Sequence record: PZ445444.1
Direction: 5' to 3' (one strand)
From: a phage
DNA length: 64,000 nt
Made by a program: the position numbers and the translations under genes. Of this stretch, positions 29,127 through 64,000 are shown one piece after another. Each line of letters opens with the position of its first letter. The stretch's first letter is position 1. A model generated the notes under the pieces. It did no database searches. It was not told the origin of the DNA and worked only from the letters and a program-made list of their open reading frames with translations.

Positions 29127-29411
29127 CTACCAGGTCACTGTCAAGTAGGCAACTGTGTTATTTTTCTCCGGAGAGATGCCAACAACATCCACCTGCAGAC
29201 CTCCTGCCCTCAAATCCCCAACAATGTGTGGGAAGTAGTCTGAGAGGTGTGATGGGAGATTTATCGAAAATCCACATCCCAGAAAGCCTGCTAACGCTTT
29301 ATTTTGTATCTCCCCAACAATCGCATCATAAATAGAGTTAAGCTCGTCAGGAAGCGTTACAGGACGTTTTAGCGCTAACTGGTGCAACTTGTCCTTAGCA
29401 CTCATTTTCAT
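29127..29411 (-). CDS. hypothetical protein
   Basis: 94 aa from ATG overlapping the methyltransferase stop (ATGA); the longer track ORF would overlap the upstream gene by 73 nt. Confidence 0.45.
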   Translation of the reverse strand: MKMSAKDKLHQLALKRPVTLPDELNSIYDAIVGEIQNKALAGFLGCGFSINLPSHLSDYFPHIVGDLRAGGLQVDVVGISPEKNNTVAYLTVTW

Positions 29412-29941
29412 TTCAAGTCTGCCTCTGGTGGTGCCAACCACATAAATGGCGGCAAGTCTAGACGGTTTTTCTTGTCCCATACAAAATATGCATATGCCTG
29501 CCCATCCGTTCTACCATTAGATTGGAATGACGGACGCTTAGATATTGTGATCACAGTGGTAGGTGCATTATCAAGCCACCATTCAAATCTGGCCTTGCTT
29601 TCCAGAAAATTAAGACGCAAAAGCATAATAACTACGTCGGCATCTTTCAACGCCTTGTCCACAAACTCACGAGCCAGGCTGTACGGCGGGTTGGTGATAA
29701 TACAGTCAACATGGTTGTATTCTGTATTCAGATAGTCAACACCTTCTTGGATTTCTCCCCATGCAGATCCTAACGGCATACGGGAGTAGAACACACCTGA
29801 GGCACTATTCCTGCAAGGCTCTAAGTAGGTCCAGTCTTCTGGGAACGGAATAAGGTCATACAGTCCTTCTGCACACCACTCCGGTGTCACATACTCATCG
29901 TAGGCGTTACGTTGTTCATCAGGTTTTCTAGCACAAGTCAT
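29408..29941 (-). CDS. small DNA methyltransferase-like protein (NPPY motif)
   Basis: 177 aa; catalytic-type motif IITNPPY. Confidence 0.55.
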   Translation of the reverse strand: MTCARKPDEQRNAYDEYVTPEWCAEGLYDLIPFPEDWTYLEPCRNSASGVFYSRMPLGSAWGEIQEGVDYLNTEYNHVDCIITNPPYSLAREFVDKALKDADVVIMLLRLNFLESKARFEWWLDNAPTTVITISKRPSFQSNGRTDGQAYAYFVWDKKNRLDLPPFMWLAPPEADLK

Positions 29942-29992
29942 GCAAATCTCCAGATCATAAAAGCCCTCCGAAGAGGGCTTTAGAATTAATGT

Positions 29993-31042
29993 TTAAGCTT
30001 CTTCGACAATTCCTGCACCCAGGATTTTTTCATTGAGCTCTTTTGCTGTTTTAATAATATTGTCCACAAGACGCTTGCGAGTCTTATCTTTCACCTTAAC
30101 CTCTTCACCGCCGTTCAGAGTAGTCTTCAATTGAGACAGAATATCCTGAAGTTCAACGACAGAGAATCTCTGCAGATCTTCTGAAGTAATCTCACCCAGG
30201 GCAATTCGGACGGTCTCGCCACTTTCCATCTGCAGATTCAGGAACACAGTGTGAACATCACCTTTCGAACCACCCGCTTTTGCAGATTCAACAGCATGAA
30301 CTAACTCATCTAAAGATGTGCACTGATGAATCTCCGGAAGACCTGCTTCACCTAACACGCCTTCTTCATCACCTTTTGCCAGAAGCTTTTTCGGTTTTTG
30401 TCCGTTCTGGATGCGTTGTATGTTGCCTTCATCCAGAATAATAGCTCCAGTGCGTGCTGCCAACTCTTCTCCGTCCAACCACACTTCGCCACCAGCTGTG
30501 ATGGATGCGATCTCATCTTCTGTCAGCACCCCACCGTAGTATTTTTCGATCAGGTGTTCAAAATGTTTTTTCCAGTAGCTGACCTGAGTATTCATGTTAA
30601 CACCGTTACCATAAGTGCCACCTTGATAGTAGTGGAACATAAATTCTGTGTCCGGAGCCACAGTACGTTCTTTGCAACCAAGCCATAAGATTGTTCCAGC
30701 AGAGCAGCACATCCCTTCAGCATGTGCAACAACGCTTGCCTGAGACTCGCGGAATGCCTGCAGATAGGCCATTGCAATGTGCACGCAACCACCAGGGCTA
30801 TTGATGATCACACGAATGCTTTCTTCCGGCTGAGCCATACGGATCGTCTGCAGACGAGACATATGATCCTGCAGGTCCTCCAAATCGTCGATATAAAGAA
30901 CGTGGTCAACAACAGGTGTTGGGTAGCTGTATGTTTCCATGATACCGCCCGGCATACCAAACATTTTATTACTCATAGGTTCGAAACCGTTCTGTTTTTC
31001 TTTCATGCCGTGTACCATGGTGCTGCGAGGTGTTAAATTCAT
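29993..31042 (-). CDS. ClpP-like (S14 family) serine protease with C-terminal extension
   Basis: 349 aa; INSPGG oxyanion-hole motif, GMCCSAG serine motif, downstream His; AAGGA RBS. Confidence 0.7.
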   Translation of the reverse strand: MNLTPRSTMVHGMKEKQNGFEPMSNKMFGMPGGIMETYSYPTPVVDHVLYIDDLEDLQDHMSRLQTIRMAQPEESIRVIINSPGGCVHIAMAYLQAFRESQASVVAHAEGMCCSAGTILWLGCKERTVAPDTEFMFHYYQGGTYGNGVNMNTQVSYWKKHFEHLIEKYYGGVLTEDEIASITAGGEVWLDGEELAARTGAIILDEGNIQRIQNGQKPKKLLAKGDEEGVLGEAGLPEIHQCTSLDELVHAVESAKAGGSKGDVHTVFLNLQMESGETVRIALGEITSEDLQRFSVVELQDILSQLKTTLNGGEEVKVKDKTRKRLVDNIIKTAKELNEKILGAGIVEEA

Positions 31043-31102: not shown

Positions 31103-31414
31103 TTATTTAGCAATCACTATGGAGTACTTACGATTGTCAGAAGCATCACAACTCAATGATTGCCAATCTACCACATACCACGTATCATTGTCAACAATTA
31201 CTTTATCGCCTGTTCTGTAGCAAGTGCTGCTTTCAATAATTCGAGACTCGATAAAGAATCTGTGTCGGCGCTCACGTAGCAACGCTAAGTTGATTATATT
31301 ACCACCGCTGTCCTTGATCCACACATTCTTGGATCCTTTATTTGCCAAAATTGTCTCGCCGTTATAGACAAACAGGCAGTATATTTTATTCAGTCTCTCT
31401 TGTATTGTAGCCAT
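31103..31414 (-). CDS. hypothetical protein
   Basis: 103-aa ORF. Confidence 0.5.
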   Translation of the reverse strand: MATIQERLNKIYCLFVYNGETILANKGSKNVWIKDSGGNIINLALLRERRHRFFIESRIIESSTCYRTGDKVIVDNDTWYVVDWQSLSCDASDNRKYSIVIAK

Positions 31415-31517
31415 ACTATCTCCTTCTCCTTGTCTTGTCCGATAATAATATCTAAAGCTTACCTGTTTGTCAACAACTGTTTTAGATATTTAAGGGTGGA
31501 ATAACCACCCTTCTGTA

Positions 31518-32306
31518 TTACTCGGAAACAGGGGTCCAAATATGATTTGCACGATCCTCAATAAGATTGAGTGCGATTTGACGACCCAACCCGGAACGAA
31601 CGACATCGTCTGGACTATCAAAGCTGATCATTCCAACCTCAGGATCTGGATGACGAGTAAAGAAATCCGTCACCCATGCAAGGCCAGATTTACCAGGGAT
31701 GTCACGTTGGCTATTATCACCCATAATTACAAGGGTGGCTTGATCAGAGATCCTTGTGATAATTGACAACATTTCTTCAGGGTTAGTTTGCTGTGCCTCG
31801 TCAATCAGGACAAAGCATCGCTCATCGAAACTACGACCACGAATGCTTTCAACTTCACAAATCTCGATACGACTGTTCTGACCGTCTCCCAGCATTGCGG
31901 CAAAAGCACCTTTGCCAACACGACGACAAATCGTGTCCATCATGCTTCGAAGATAGGGCCACAGTTTCTGCATTGCATTTCCGGGTTTAAATCCTGAAGT
32001 CTTTCCTGTCTGGACGTAAGGACGTGCAACAATGATCTTATCAATCTCGTTCTTACGCAGAAGATCACCTGCATATGCAGATGCCATAAATGTCTTACCG
32101 GATCCAAACACACCGTTTACAATAATAATCTTACGTGACCCTAGATAATCAAGATACTTTTGCTGCTTCTTATTCATTGGTCGGAGAGCTGGAGCGGTGT
32201 GCTCTCTTTCGTCAGCAAATTTCTCAGCAGCCTTACGCAGGCGATCAGATTTGCGAGCCTCTCTAGCTTCATCACGCATGCGTTTTGTTTCTTTAGCTCG
32301 ACCCAT
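31518..32306 (-). CDS. phoH: PhoH-family ATPase
   Basis: 262 aa; Walker A GVFGSGKTF, PhoH-like layout. Confidence 0.85.
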   Translation of the reverse strand: MGRAKETKRMRDEAREARKSDRLRKAAEKFADEREHTAPALRPMNKKQQKYLDYLGSRKIIIVNGVFGSGKTFMASAYAGDLLRKNEIDKIIVARPYVQTGKTSGFKPGNAMQKLWPYLRSMMDTICRRVGKGAFAAMLGDGQNSRIEICEVESIRGRSFDERCFVLIDEAQQTNPEEMLSIITRISDQATLVIMGDNSQRDIPGKSGLAWVTDFFTRHPDPEVGMISFDSPDDVVRSGLGRQIALNLIEDRANHIWTPVSE

Positions 32307-33889: not shown

Positions 33890-34882
33890 CTACAGGCTAT
33901 TACCTGTCCTATGTTTACAACAAATCTCTCTATGCGCTGATTCTACCATACTGAACACTTCAGGTCTGTAGTTAAAGAATTCGGTACTACCATCAAATTT
34001 TACAGGGAAGTTTATTTTATATTTACTGAAGGCTTTGTGCACAGATTTTTCTACAGCCAGCATGTTTTCAGTTGATCCTTCCAACGTTTTCACTATGTGA
34101 AGATCGCGGATACTAGCTCCAGATCTTTGTGCACTTTTAAGTATCTGGTCTCTTCGCTTACTTTCATTATGACTGACCCCTATTTTCATAAATGTAGGCA
34201 CTTCTGGATCATCAACCATAATGTAGAGTTTTCCGTTATCGTGTGATAAAAATCCTGTTTTAGCACATCTAGGGCAAGCATGTCCCTGCTTAAGACTGCT
34301 TGGTACGGTTAACCATGTGTGGCTACAATTTTTACAGCAGCACAGGACTTTCTTATCCCACCTAATAATTTCTTCCAATATCTCAACATAAGGATTTCTA
34401 CTTCTTATGGACTCAACCCACTTTTCGTGTGGTGATGTTTTACTTTGTGAGATTCTTGACCCCTTACAAACTGGACAACCTCTTTTCAAATTTATATGGT
34501 TATCAGGTGTCTGTGTAAAGTGATTTCCACAAGTGTTGCAGATTATTTCTACCCTGTCTTTGCAAGTCTTGTAGTATACGAGAGAGTAGTCATATTTATC
34601 TCCATGGATTTCTTTGGCCCTTTCTACAAATTTAAGACCTTTATTACACTTTGCAGCACGAGAAAGTTTTGCACAAAAAGGACAACCACGACCTTGCAAG
34701 TGTTTACAAGGTGCTTGCATAAAATCCCCATGGATTTGGCAGGTAATGCAAACCTTCGCATAGCAATCCACGTACACTGTTTTCGTGTAATCGTATTTAT
34801 AACCGTGAATGATTTTCGCCTTCTCTATAAACTCTTCTGTTGATAATTTAGCCATTTCTTGTTTCCTAACTTCTCTAAACAT
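33890..34882 (-). CDS. T5orf172-domain (GIY-YIG-like) protein with tandem N-terminal zinc-ribbon repeats; putative homing endonuclease
   Basis: 330 aa; two repeats of HG-KYDYS...C..C...GCP.C; C-terminal GKLYIMVDDPEVPTFMKIGVSHN...R matches my recollection of the T5orf172 domain. Confidence 0.6.
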   Translation of the reverse strand: MFREVRKQEMAKLSTEEFIEKAKIIHGYKYDYTKTVYVDCYAKVCITCQIHGDFMQAPCKHLQGRGCPFCAKLSRAAKCNKGLKFVERAKEIHGDKYDYSLVYYKTCKDRVEIICNTCGNHFTQTPDNHINLKRGCPVCKGSRISQSKTSPHEKWVESIRSRNPYVEILEEIIRWDKKVLCCCKNCSHTWLTVPSSLKQGHACPRCAKTGFLSHDNGKLYIMVDDPEVPTFMKIGVSHNESKRRDQILKSAQRSGASIRDLHIVKTLEGSTENMLAVEKSVHKAFSKYKINFPVKFDGSTEFFNYRPEVFSMVESAHREICCKHRTGNSL

Positions 34883-60742: not shown

Positions 60743-60817
60743 GCCCTGTTAGCTTAGTGGATAAAGCAGCGGCCTTCTAAGCCGTTGACACTGGTTCGAG
60801 TCCAGTACGGGGTGCCA
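60743..60817 (+). tRNA. tRNA-Arg (anticodon TCT)
   Basis: hand-folded cloverleaf: 7-bp acceptor GCCCTGT/ACGGGGT, D stem GCTT/AAGC, anticodon loop CTTCTAA, T loop TTCGAGT, encoded CCA. Confidence 0.75.
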
Positions 60818-60821
60818 AATT

Positions 60822-60908
60822 GGGGAGTTATCCCGTAGAGGTAGCGGTGTAGACTGTAAATCTATTGTCATTGCGACTCGGGTGGTTCGACTCCACCACT
60901 CCCCACCA
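60822..60908 (+). tRNA. tRNA-Tyr (anticodon GTA), long variable arm
   Basis: acceptor GGGGAGT/ACTCCCC, anticodon stem-loop GTAGA-CTGTAAA-TCTAT, T arm GGTGG-TTCGACT-CCACC, CCA. Confidence 0.7.
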
Positions 60909-61022
60909 AATTTATATTTTTAGATGCATAAATAATACAGATAATGGCATTGATATTTATCGTCGTTTATACTAGTCACTAACTGCTCGAAAATCAGTGT
61001 CATTATCAGTATAATTTATAAA

Positions 61023-61113
61023 GGAGGGTAGGGAGCAATGGTGCTCAAGCGGTCTTGAAAACCGTCCCGTTGAGGATGACTCGATGATGGTTCGATTCCA
61101 TTACTCTCCGCCA
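61023..61113 (+). tRNA. tRNA-Ser (anticodon TGA), type II
   Basis: acceptor GGAGGGT/ACTCTCC, anticodon loop CTTGAAA, long variable arm, T loop TTCGATT, CCA. Confidence 0.6.
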
Positions 61114-61211
61114 CATTGTTGACCTTGTAATTAAGCGAAAGCCGGAAGCAGAACCGGATTATCAAATGTTACAGTCGTCATCGCCGACTAGCAACATGGT
61201 CAACATACTGA

Positions 61212-61310
61212 GCTAGGTAAGCCCTTTGGCAAGGGCGAGGATTTTTAATCCTGAAAATAGACGAGGTAGTCGTTGAATACATAGGTGGTTCGATTCCATC
61301 ACCTAGCACC
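61212..61310 (+). tRNA. tRNA-like gene, atypical (99 nt; anticodon loop TTTTTAA suggests TTT/Lys; ~28-nt variable region)
   Basis: acceptor GCTAGGT/ACCTAGC, D arm GCCC-TTTGGCAA-GGGC, 4-bp anticodon stem AGGA/TCCT, T arm GGTGG-TTCGATT-CCATC; CCA not fully encoded. Confidence 0.4.
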
Positions 61311-61315
61311 TTTTT

Positions 61316-61391
61316 GCTGATGTAGCACAATCGGTAGTGCAATTGATTTGTAATCAATAGGTTGTAGGTTCAAGTCCTGCCATCAGCACCA
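61316..61391 (+). tRNA. tRNA-Thr (anticodon TGT)
   Basis: acceptor GCTGATG/CATCAGC, D stem GCAC/GTGC, anticodon arm ATTGA-TTTGTAA-TCAAT, T loop TTCAAGT, CCA. Confidence 0.8.
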
Positions 61392-61392
61392 A

Positions 61393-61467
61393 GGCCCTGT
61401 AGCTGGAAGGTTCAAGCAAGCGACTCATAATCGCCAGACGGTGGTTCAATTCCACCCAGGGCCACCA
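61393..61467 (+). tRNA. tRNA-Met (anticodon CAT; initiator, elongator or Ile-lysidine type not resolved)
   Basis: acceptor GGCCCTG/CAGGGCC, anticodon loop CTCATAA, T arm GGTGG-TTCAATT-CCACC, CCA. Confidence 0.75.
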
Positions 61468-61478
61468 AATAATAAATA

Positions 61479-61555
61479 CTCCGCGTAGCTCAGCTTGGTA
61501 GAGCGCCTGATTTGGGATCAGGAGGTCGAGTGTTCGAATCACTCCGTGGAGACCA
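61479..61555 (+). tRNA. tRNA-Pro (anticodon TGG)
   Basis: acceptor CTCCGCG/CGTGGAG, D arm TAGCTCAGCTTGGTAGAGC, anticodon arm CCTGA-TTTGGGA-TCAGG, T arm GAGTG-TTCGAAT-CACTC, CCA. Confidence 0.8.
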
Positions 61556-61976: not shown

Positions 61977-62375
61977 ATGATTTCAGGTTTAACATGGCTG
62001 AGTAGGTATAGAGGGATCATAAAAGGTTTAGTTTTTGCAGCGGCTATAGGTACAGCTTATCTTGGGGCCGTGTATTGGTTTAACTCTAAGCTTAATGAAG
62101 CCTACCAAAAAGGTGTGTTAGCAACAGAGTTGAAGTGGGAACGGATCCTTGATCAGCAACAAAAGCAGGCCGACAAAATTAAAATGGGCCACGCGGAGGA
62201 GGTTAAAAACCTTGAAAAATCCCTTTCTGATCTACAGGATAAATTAAATATAGCTGAGAGGGCAGGTAGAGAAAAGCAGATTATCTACCTCCAATCACCT
62301 GAAGGTAAGAAGTCAACACTTCCTGATCAGCTTATAGATATTTATAATGAGAGTATCAATCAGGAGGATCGATGA
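61977..62375 (+). CDS. putative i-spanin (Rz-like)
   Basis: 132 aa; N-terminal TM helix then charged coiled-coil region; immediately followed by a lipoprotein ORF. Confidence 0.55.
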   Translation: MISGLTWLSRYRGIIKGLVFAAAIGTAYLGAVYWFNSKLNEAYQKGVLATELKWERILDQQQKQADKIKMGHAEEVKNLEKSLSDLQDKLNIAERAGREKQIIYLQSPEGKKSTLPDQLIDIYNESINQEDR

Positions 62376-62659
62376 GAGTTGCCACACTGTTTATTGCGTG
62401 CTTGTTATTATGTGGGTGTGCAACCAGCGTTGAGAGAGAATACAAGATTGACCCTCCGGATGTAGGAAGGTTGATTGTTAAACCCCCAGAAGGTGCCATG
62501 AAACCACCTGCTAAAGCTATGCCTTTGAAGAAAGGTGCGCCAGATGCAGTGAATTCTGGCATTATGAGGGATAATAATCTGTCTTGTAGCAATGATAGAG
62601 CTAAATTGATCATTTTGCAAGACTATATTAGAACACTGTTTCCAAAGGAGAGAGGTTAA
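62372..62659 (+). CDS. putative o-spanin (Rz1-like lipoprotein)
   Basis: 95 aa; signal peptide with Cys-containing lipobox-like LLLCGC; proline-rich mature region; overlaps upstream stop by 4 nt. Confidence 0.55.
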   Translation: MRVATLFIACLLLCGCATSVEREYKIDPPDVGRLIVKPPEGAMKPPAKAMPLKKGAPDAVNSGIMRDNNLSCSNDRAKLIILQDYIRTLFPKERG

Positions 62660-63087
62660 TGTCTAAGATTTACGGACCGTGTTCTGAAAAGCAGAAGATG
62701 ATCCTCGAAAACGATGCAGATATCTTGGTAATCGGCGGTGCCGCAGGGTCTGGCAAGTCGTTCCTCTTGCAGTTGATGCCACTTAAAATTATTGATGACC
62801 CCCACAGCTCTGTGGTTATGTTCCGAAGAACAACCCCACAGTTGGAAGGTGAGGGTGGATTATGGCCTAAAGCAGTAGCTATTTATAGTGATCTGCCTGA
62901 AAACATTAAGCCAAAGTTTAGAGAGAAGGATCATAAGTTCATTTTTCCACGGTTTGATCCGAACACTGGCAAGTGGGATAGAAGCAAAAAGGGAGCTGTT
63001 GTAAAATACTGCCACATGGAGTATGTACAAGATAAGCTTAACCATCAGGGGCTTGAGTACACCATGGTTTGCTTCGATGAGGGTTAA
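62659..63087 (+). CDS. terminase large subunit, N-terminal ATPase part (exon 1 or split-gene fragment)
   Basis: 142 aa; Walker A VIGGAAGSGKSF, ORF ends right after Walker-B-like MVCFDEG. Confidence 0.65.
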   Translation: MSKIYGPCSEKQKMILENDADILVIGGAAGSGKSFLLQLMPLKIIDDPHSSVVMFRRTTPQLEGEGGLWPKAVAIYSDLPENIKPKFREKDHKFIFPRFDPNTGKWDRSKKGAVVKYCHMEYVQDKLNHQGLEYTMVCFDEG

Positions 63088-64000
63088 TTTGTAGCTCTCG
63101 TAAAACCTCCCTAATTGCGGGGAAATCTTTATTATTGACACCACCAACCTGTCATGGTAACATGACAGAGGCTTCGAAGAGAGATCGAAGGTATGGTAAC
63201 AGTGTGTTAATTTAGATAATCCGCAGCGAAGCATCCGAGAGGATGAACGTTCAACGACTAGTCGAAAGACGTAGAATCAAGCGATTCGAAACGGGAGGGT
63301 GAATGTGTAATACTAAAAAATGTATGGATTGCCAAAGAGTTCTACCTATTGATGATTTCTTTTTATCATCTAAGAGCAAGGATGGATACTCAGGTACATG
63401 CAAGGAATGCTATATGTACTACAGGAAGGGTGGATCTCGTAAAAACAAAAATATGGTTAAGAGAGATGATGCAGCATTGTTTATTCAAGACTTGCTGAAG
63501 AAAGGTGAACTTTTTGAATGCAAATCTTGTCATGAAAGTATGCTCGCTGATAGTTTTTACACAAAACGTGACTATGGTAAAGTATATCTGGTTACGAACA
63601 GGTGTAAGATGTGTGAAAAGTTTTATCAGATTGAGAAGAAATTTCACATAACAAAAGATGAATACTATCGTCTACTCTCAGATCAAGATCATAAGTGTGC
63701 CATTTGTAGAATATCCCTTGATGAGTATAGGACGCAAGGGTATAGAGATTTCTTTTGTGTTGATCATGACCATAAAACTGGTGCTGTAAGAGGGTTGCTT
63801 TGTGATAAATGCAACAGAGCTTTAGGTTTCTTCCAAGAGGATGAGGAAACTATTCTTAGAGCGGCAGAGTATTTACACATTCATAAGATATAGTCTGGTC
63901 TGCATGGAGACATGCAGCTGCCTGAAAATGGCGGGGCAAGACTAGCGACCTTGCCCGAACATAAACGACACAATTCGAATGGGAGCAGATAGACTACCTG
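63088..64000 (+). mobile_element. probable group I intron (partial, continues past window) with an Endo VII-type nuclease ORF
   Basis: 215-nt non-coding stretch after the truncated terminase ORF, then the nuclease ORF, then further non-coding sequence to the window end. Confidence 0.45.
63303..63893 (+). CDS. Endo VII-type (HNH-like) homing endonuclease with N-terminal zinc fingers
   Basis: 196 aa, GGGAGGG RBS; CMDCQ...CKEC and CKSC zinc-finger motifs; Endo VII signature VDHDHKTGAVRGLLCDKCN. Confidence 0.7.
   Translation: MCNTKKCMDCQRVLPIDDFFLSSKSKDGYSGTCKECYMYYRKGGSRKNKNMVKRDDAALFIQDLLKKGELFECKSCHESMLADSFYTKRDYGKVYLVTNRCKMCEKFYQIEKKFHITKDEYYRLLSDQDHKCAICRISLDEYRTQGYRDFFCVDHDHKTGAVRGLLCDKCNRALGFFQEDEETILRAAEYLHIHKI

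Follow-up and report, generated by a model that had tools for sequence, protein, structure and literature searches.

The subject of this analysis is a gene for a serine protease of the ClpP fold, carried on the minus strand of a 64,000-nucleotide stretch of phage DNA (sequence record PZ445444.1; the whole of this stretch is called the window below). An earlier note on the sequence had assigned the gene to positions 29993-31042, and an open reading frame (ORF) of 349 amino acids on the minus strand occupies exactly these positions; an AAGGA Shine-Dalgarno motif lies 7 nucleotides 5' of the ATG. The same note had placed the gene between a methyltransferase and PhoH, and both neighbors are indeed there, but a further ORF of 103 amino acids at 31103-31414, before PhoH, had been overlooked. 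The features of the locus are as follows.

29408..29941, minus strand: DNA methyltransferase gene, 177 amino acids, downstream of the protease gene after the terminator (PHROG 799, E value 5e-67; Pfam matches below threshold)
29957..29978, minus strand: Rho-independent terminator GCCCTCTTCGGAGGGCTTTTAT, a GC-rich hairpin with a T-run, 14 nucleotides past the protease stop codon, identical to rV5 t122, with 0 chance matches expected
29993..31042, minus strand: ClpP-fold serine protease gene, 349 amino acids plus stop, ATG start, ortholog of rV5 gp122
31103..31414, minus strand: 103-amino-acid ORF (PHROG 5456, rV5 gp121), first gene of the cassette, with no assigned function
31445..31473, minus strand: sigma-70-type promoter TTGACA-N17-TATTAT, from a promoter scan, matching 11 of 12 consensus positions and equal to rV5 P121 (Table S4)
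31518..32306, minus strand: PhoH-like P-loop ATPase gene, upstream (Pfam PhoH, 160.9 bits)

A known gene in a two-gene cassette

The promoter, read from 31473 to 31445, follows directly on the hairpin that trails PhoH, and the terminator closes the protease gene at its other end; P121 and t122 together therefore delimit the 103-amino-acid ORF and the protease gene as a discrete two-gene cassette. Homologues of the 103-amino-acid ORF stand upstream of the ClpP-like gene in 16 loci (phmmer) and are conserved across the Vequintavirinae, and no Pfam or PDB relative of the ORF was found; its product could be a partner, an adaptor, or an inhibitor of the protease. The authors of the rV5 genome proposed that genes 82-163 form one transcription unit and the late structural genes 27-66 another, the latter with a T4-late-like promoter motif, and the ClpP-like gene falls within the 82-163 unit and not in the late one. 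A homologue of the protease gene is gp211 of vibriophage ICP1; in ICP1 the nucleotide-metabolism genes within gp176-gp211 peak at 12 min and the capsid genes at 16 min, figures that describe these groups and not the profile of gp211 itself.

This gene has already been annotated many times over and is a known feature of the rV5-like coliphages. The window comes from an rV5-like Vequintavirus. Identity over the region reaches 99.6% with Escherichia phage PMBT16 and 99.4% with JohannBauhin, and it lies at 97-99% for upwards of 100 rV5-like phages of that genus; the protein itself shares 97-99.7% identity with genes named "ClpP protease subunit" in more than 100 deposited rV5-like genomes; rV5 gp122 was listed in 2013 as a "ClpP (ATP-dependent) protease subunit" of 349 amino acids. 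PHROG 5410, labeled "ATP-dependent protease", is matched over its full length and with the C-terminal domain included (E value 1.9e-154; residues 24-345 against profile positions 4-322 of 323). Given that length, neighbors, promoter, and terminator are all alike, rV5 gp122 and PHROG 5410 (Vequintavirinae) represent the same gene, with no substantive difference from the one studied here; the database name implies ATP dependence and membership in ClpP, neither of which is supported by the tests on the window protein described below. In the same comparisons, about 19 unannotated records labeled "Campylobacter phage" (host Campylobacter jejuni, MG0656xx series) proved 97-99% identical to rV5-like coliphages, and these are probably mislabeled or derived from contaminated propagation. 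Assignments of the protein to the S49/SppA, NfeD, or SDH-type families were considered and set aside, the matches being weaker than those to ClpP and below their own cutoffs, and PADLOC, consulted for a role in defense or anti-defense, returned no match for either the protease or the 103-amino-acid ORF.

A ClpP fold with an apparently remodeled docking surface

The protein was modeled with AlphaFold2, for which confidence is given as the predicted local distance difference test (pLDDT), and aligned with 20 homologous sequences of 40-68% identity. Residues 1-44 are predicted to be disordered (pLDDT <50), and the remainder is organized as follows.

30398..30910, minus strand: ClpP-fold catalytic domain, residues 45-215 (pLDDT >90; best Foldseek matches to ClpP)
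30701-30703, minus strand: Ser114, aligned to Ser97 of E. coli ClpP and invariant in the 20 homologues
30632-30634, minus strand: His137, aligned to His122 of E. coli ClpP and invariant in the 20 homologues
30485-30487, minus strand: Glu186, aligned to Asp171 of E. coli ClpP
30257..30397, minus strand: flexible linker, residues 216-262 (about 47 amino acids), rich in Gly, Lys, and Glu, modeled with low confidence and variable in length and sequence among homologues
29996..30256, minus strand: family-specific C-terminal domain, residues 263-349, a beta-hairpin and three helices (AlphaFold2 and alignment)

The fold of the catalytic domain is that of ClpP: the best match in the PDB is a ClpP structure (Foldseek E value 2.6e-10, template modeling score 0.70 normalized to the target), and all 50 of the PDB matches listed are ClpP structures, with scores of 0.64-0.73 on the same normalization. 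Pfam CLP_protease (PF00574) is matched at 47.9 bits against a gathering cutoff of 20.2, over residues 59-169 and profile positions 32-144 of 182. The oxyanion Gly85, the NSPGG loop, and the handle motif Q-G-G-x-x-G are conserved across the homologues, and the longer form of this motif, H-x-x-Q-G-G-x-x-G, is compatible with the stacking of rings without being proof of a tetradecamer. The S14-type motifs reported in the earlier note thus stand as far as the Pfam model, the fold, and the Ser/His pair are concerned; the closest profile, in contrast, is that of the phage ClpP-related head-maturation proteases and not that of cellular ClpP.

Measured against cellular ClpP (MEROPS S14; TIGR00493; E. 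coli ClpP), the protein shares the fold, the catalytic Ser and His, the oxyanion loop, and the GG motif of the handle, but at about 19-23% identity it scores roughly one tenth of the family cutoffs, with 33.0 bits against 308.6 for TIGR00493, 37.7 against 249 for NF001368, and 38.5 against 228 for NF009205. It also differs from cellular ClpP in having Glu or Gln in the place of Asp171, an added linker and C-terminal domain, a polar pocket, no axial loop, and no partner ATPase. The first profile position covered by a hidden Markov model (HMM) match is 32 for Pfam and 46 for TIGR00493, and the late start of the Pfam match indicates that the axial-loop region is missing; neither the N-terminal axial loop nor helix A of ClpP is recognizable in the protein, the first 44 residues of which are modeled as disordered.

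The hydrophobic apical pocket of ClpP receives the IGF/IGL loops of ClpX or ClpA. When the pocket positions are read off against E. coli ClpP numbering, the replacements Y60 to R77, F82 to E99, I90 to H107, M92 to E109, and F112 to T127 are found in all 20 homologues, L114 has become Ala or Ser, and L48 and F49 are deleted. Within the window, positions 30662-30814 (minus strand) encode R77, E99, H107-A108-E109-G110, and T127, which are polar and invariant at the docking-pocket positions and suggest, on the strength of this conservation, a remodeled interaction surface that is itself conserved. Glutamate at the M92 position recurs in ICP1 gp211 and in JG004 gp42. When a phage ClpX-like protein was used as the tblastn query, neither the window nor the complete genome of JohannBauhin yielded a Clp-type ATPase, all matches staying at the level of the P-loop (E values of at least 0.13), and the JohannBauhin annotation holds MoxR, PhoH, and P-loop NTPases but no Clp unfoldase; a second ClpP-like copy was likewise found in neither sequence.

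The protein is therefore not a true ClpP: it has the fold and the Ser/His pair, but it fails the ClpP-specific tests of profile score, docking pocket, axial loop, and partner ATPase. The low scores against cellular ClpP, the polar pocket, and the lack of a genome-encoded Clp ATPase lead us to regard "ATP-dependent" in the database names as a case of name transfer, and the enzyme is probably ATP-independent. The best-scoring curated profiles are those of the ClpP-related head-maturation proteases, which are ATP-independent, have the ClpP fold, and frequently carry C-terminal extensions: Clp_rel_HeadMat (NF045542) is the best NCBIfam match at 61.6 bits against a cutoff of 120, and the ClpP-like protease/major capsid protein (MCP) fusion model NF045540 follows at 53.1 bits, also below its cutoff. 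The window protein differs from these in scoring half or less of their cutoffs, in its position away from portal and capsid genes, and in having a C-terminal domain unrelated to known scaffolds. They are nonetheless probably its lineage of origin, and from the sequence comparisons descent from an ATP-independent phage protease lineage appears most likely.

Among other phage proteins, the ClpPs of phage ClpX-ClpP pairs and of jumbo phages are full-length (Pfam positions 8-178, 84-107 bits), and they share with the window protein a non-structural ClpP fold and proposed host-protein targets (Iyer et al. 2021). One IMG/VR locus (L073, 8465-10420) carries, beside a primase-helicase gene, a gene for a ClpX-type AAA+ ATPase and directly after it one for a full-length ClpP, and appears to be a genuine phage-borne ClpXP pair; its ClpP, unlike the window protein, keeps hydrophobic residues at the pocket positions. 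A further comparison is with ICP1 gp211 and the short proteins of PHROG 1827 (JG004 gp42, ventosus, Barbavirus, and V22), which are about 32-35% identical in the protease domain and share the polar substitution at the M92 position, the non-structural placement, often the PhoH neighbor, and the coexistence with a separate head protease. The PHROG 1827-type proteins differ in being mostly 182-228 amino acids long, without the C-terminal domain, and gp211, at 326 amino acids, has an extension without detectable homology; a common origin of the two extensions was considered and rejected, since BLASTP found nothing and hhalign gave a probability of about 1%.

The C-terminal extension described in the earlier note does exist, although it spans about 134 residues (216-349) and not the approximately 150 first estimated. 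Its folded part, of about 85 amino acids, is confidently predicted even when modeled alone (residues 263-343, pLDDT 84-95), and F293, E297, and R322 are invariant in it. Structural and sequence searches returned no significant relative, with BFVD giving only another member of the family and Pfam nothing above threshold, and no scaffold or capsid protein was matched. Several weak pointers connect the motif F-x-V-x-E-L-Q-x-I-L ... R-x-x-L-I-x-x-I to SAP/HeH helix-extended-helix motifs, which is only a lead towards tethering of nucleic acid by this domain.

A separate head-protease candidate and a recurrent PhoH neighborhood

The window itself contains no structural module: it ends in the terminase gene, with the spanins at 61977-62659. 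The earlier note had proposed that a complete genome be inspected for a separate prohead protease, and had allowed that its reading would fail if the ClpP-like gene were the only protease and required for head maturation. In the complete genome of JohannBauhin the order is portal, a 139-amino-acid "prohead protease", scaffold, decoration protein, and major capsid protein, and the product of the gene between portal and scaffold (bas53_0005; L001, 4276-4695) scores 64.8 bits with the Pfam model Peptidase_S78_2 (XkdF), for which the cutoff is 24. A separate and properly placed head-protease candidate is thus present, so that the situation that would have counted against the note is not the one found. 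This portal-adjacent gene lies about 34 kb from the ClpP-like gene, across the genome ends. In Certrevirus CB7 the homologous protein, adjacent to the portal protein, was detected in virions, and the ICP1 homologue, at 40-41% identity, is annotated "capsid protease"; the late capsid operon of ICP1, gp122-126, includes a predicted protease, gp125, and the position of the homologue is consistent with gp125. In ICP1, Barbavirus, and Curvibacter phage P26059A, a head-module protease coexists with a separate ClpP-like gene elsewhere in the genome. The best PHROG match of the XkdF-type head protease is PHROG 1530, labeled "DNA methyltransferase", and some phi92-like genomes annotate the gene in this way; the label was probably inherited from fusion proteins in that PHROG.

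Mass spectrometry (MS) of mature virions did not include rV5 gp122 among the 19 virion proteins of rV5, and the virion table of CB7 contains no ClpP-like protein. Taken with the separate XkdF-type gene and with a promoter and a terminator of its own outside the predicted late unit, this agrees with the view of the earlier note that the protein is not the prohead maturation protease, a conclusion that we consider well supported by the comparative evidence.

The surroundings of the gene are conserved. Vequintavirus, Seunavirus, and Certrevirus share one syntenic block, made up of PhoH, the homologue of the 103-amino-acid ORF, the protease, the methyltransferase, and the ORF that follows it, and the downstream methyltransferase is syntenic in 19 loci. 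Of 79 IMG/VR loci with relatives of the protease, 19 encode the long form (at least 33% identity), and in 18 of these PhoH is found on the same strand, 1.4-2.9 kb upstream; in none of the more distant loci is it so placed. The order of PhoH immediately before a ClpP-like gene, both on one strand, recurs in at least six lineages of lytic phages that are unrelated to one another, namely the Vequintavirinae, ICP1, the IMG/VR loci L025/L026, ventosus, Barbavirus, and V22 (the loci behind this observation being L004-L006, L008-L026, L088, and L090). The two genes overlap in Pseudomonas phage ventosus, Rheinheimera Barbavirus has the same trio of PhoH, ClpP, and adenine methylase, and Alteromonas V22 and L025/L026 have the order PhoH and then ClpP-like. 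No paper describing this linkage was found in the literature. Elsewhere the ClpP-like gene lacks an adjacent PhoH and still lies among genes of replication and nucleotide metabolism, as in JG004, Alteromonas phage AD45-P3, Xoo-sp13, a T5-like Proteus phage, and the IMG/VR locus L031, and in all such placement is seen in at least 10 unrelated phage lineages.

Some observations concern other parts of these genomes. At 33890-34882 (minus strand), just beyond the NrdG gene, a 330-amino-acid ORF combines a T5orf172 domain with a treble-clef zinc finger in the manner of homing endonucleases, and it looks like an insertion of a mobile gene, because a comparison of annotations shows only a 38-amino-acid ORF between NrdG and NrdD in JohannBauhin. 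A cluster of seven tRNA genes occupies 60743-61555 (plus strand); within it ARAGORN predicts a 99-nucleotide tRNA gene at 61212-61310 with a four-base anticodon and no amino acid called, the JohannBauhin counterpart of which is annotated as a 97-nucleotide tRNA-Lys. The terminase large-subunit gene at 62659-63893 (plus strand) is split into separate ORFs, which is consistent with the joined coding sequence in JohannBauhin and with the section heading "Introns in terminase" in the rV5 paper. JohannBauhin further has genes for a DUF2201 metallopeptidase, which includes a VWA-like domain, and for a MoxR-type AAA+ ATPase at a distance of about 3.7 kb on the other strand (L002, 1533-2993 and 6645-7829), possibly another non-structural protease system in the same phage.

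Weighing the explanations

The explanation towards which we lean, with somewhat more confidence than doubt, is that the gene encodes an ATP-independent peptidase of the ClpP fold, which is produced from a cassette of its own in the replication phase, acts on intracellular host proteins or on non-structural proteins of the phage, and uses its C-terminal domain for targeting. The enzyme would be a non-morphogenetic offshoot of the phage ClpP-related protease lineage and not a captured host clpP. The host sigma-70 RNA polymerase would transcribe the cassette, from the promoter through the 103-amino-acid ORF and the protease gene to the terminator, within the replication and nucleotide-metabolism arm of the genome and away from the late head genes. 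Catalysis would be carried out by Ser114 and His137, with Glu186, a Gln in most relatives, replacing the aspartate of ClpP. The surface to which ClpX or ClpA would dock appears to have been rebuilt as an invariant polar patch, so that the host Clp unfoldases would not be used. The C-terminal domain, on its tether of about 47 residues, would most likely provide targeting to a substrate, a partner, or possibly nucleic acid; in the replication phase the enzyme would most likely cleave intracellular proteins of the host or non-structural ones of the phage, and head maturation would be left to the separate XkdF-type protease beside the portal gene. Of these elements, the fold and its catalytic residues, the lost docking pocket, the second protease in the head module, the signals of the cassette, and the conserved context are observed, while expression timing, oligomeric state, substrates, and the part played by the C-terminal domain are inferred. 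That the protease acts on host proteins or early in infection, as the earlier note suggested, is plausible and is an idea already present in the literature, Iyer et al. (2021) having proposed that phage ClpPs, the distribution of which is patchy, are directed against the host; other authors file phage ClpPs under "protein catabolism" or among auxiliary metabolic genes.

Several points weigh against this explanation. The closest sequence profiles are those of head-maturation proteases, and the layout of protease, linker, and helical C-terminal part resembles that of protease-scaffold fusions. According to the rV5 authors, sigma-70-like promoters occur throughout the rV5 genome, late regions included, and the promoter is therefore no proof of early timing. 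Gln occupies position 186 in 16 of the 20 homologues, where the window protein has Glu, so that the catalytic triad is not conserved in full. That the protein is missing from virions counts for little, since self-digestion and exit from the capsid are frequent among prohead proteases; the XkdF family is only a "putative" protease in Pfam, and a sequence search found no solved structure for the XkdF-type head protein. The numbering of the E. coli ClpP sequence used for the pocket comparison is self-consistent and reproduces the known catalytic and pocket residues. Finally, no data on expression, essentiality, substrate, knockout, or biochemistry of this gene in rV5-like phages were found in the literature.

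The first of these points would also fit a morphogenetic ClpP-related head-maturation protease encoded outside the head module, with a scaffold-like or capsid-targeting C-terminal domain. Such an enzyme, complementing the XkdF-type protein or taking its place, would have as its substrates the scaffold, internal proteins of the head, or further components of the virion. The two NCBIfam head-maturation models head the list of curated matches, several PHROG families of head-maturation proteases match with E values of 2e-22 to 1e-8, the domain layout is comparable to that of a 412-amino-acid protein in the head module of another locus (L027), and mature virions commonly lack prohead proteases, so that the MS data are compatible with such a role. 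We nevertheless consider it unlikely, if worth keeping in mind, since a dedicated protease gene already occupies the canonical place between portal, scaffold, and capsid and has a homologue in CB7 virions, every head-protease profile is matched far below its family cutoff, the gene sits in the replication and nucleotide-metabolism arm with a sigma-70 promoter and a terminator of its own, and the C-terminal domain matches neither scaffold nor capsid; the retention of both protease types in ICP1, Barbavirus, and P26059A moreover argues for non-redundant roles. A functional ClpP subunit, one that assembles into rings to which ClpX or ClpA of the host can bind, or that joins the host's own ClpP, and so redirects ATP-dependent proteolysis in the host, would account for the fold, the Pfam match, the Ser/His pair, and the handle motif, and true ClpX-ClpP pairs are encoded by some phages, such as that of L073; it is made very improbable by scores of 33-38 bits against cutoffs of 228-309 for the cellular ClpP models, the pocket, in which six of the positions compared are polar or deleted in all 20 homologues and a seventh (L114) is Ala or Ser, the unmatched axial-loop region together with the 44 N-terminal residues modeled as disordered, and the failure to find a phage-encoded Clp ATPase. 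Least credible to us is a catalytically dead ClpP-fold protein with a binding or regulatory role, for example as a decoy for host protease adaptors: the Gln at the third triad position in most homologues and the strong divergence from active ClpPs would fit it, but Ser114, His137, the NSPGG oxyanion loop, and the QGG handle are invariant down to about 40% identity, a pattern expected of an active enzyme, and the window protein retains a Glu at the third position.

The recurrent neighborhood brings in another proposal, in which the protease and the PhoH-like ATPase form a phage-specific two-component module and PhoH delivers or remodels substrates, possibly ribonucleoprotein or DNA-bound ones, for a ring of the ClpP-like protein with a rebuilt face for ATPase docking. 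In its favor are the near-constant upstream position of PhoH among the long-form loci, the same arrangement in the unrelated ICP1, L025/L026, ventosus (with overlapping genes), Barbavirus, and V22, and the replacement of the canonical docking pocket by an invariant polar surface, the M92-position Glu of which is shared with ICP1 gp211 and JG004 gp42. Against it, PhoH belongs to an SF1-helicase-like P-loop class for which a review gives RNA helicase activity and is not an AAA+ unfoldase; a hairpin and a separate promoter stand between PhoH and the cassette in the window, so that there is no strict co-transcription; several phages have the ClpP-like gene without a nearby PhoH; and a shared place in a conserved metabolic module is possible without physical interaction. 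We give this proposal little credence, and slightly less to its fuller version, in which a ClpP-fold ring, its ClpX/ClpA docking face rebuilt as an invariant polar surface, would work with the PhoH-like ATPase, and the SAP/HeH-like C-terminal domain would tether the complex to nucleic acid.

As a finding, the peptidase adds little, being the product of an ordinary and long-annotated gene in a well-sampled phage group, and what the analysis describes is a protein without the surface needed to use Clp ATPases. Phage PhoH is widely used as a viral marker gene, and the recurrent pairing, the one part of this work from which something new might come, gives inexpensive access to the question of what it does. 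Were the two proteins to form a two-component machine, phage PhoH would gain a concrete biochemical role; if, on the other hand, the peptidase breaks down proteins of the host or early proteins of the phage, phages employed in the biocontrol of E. coli O157 would possess in it a factor for host takeover.

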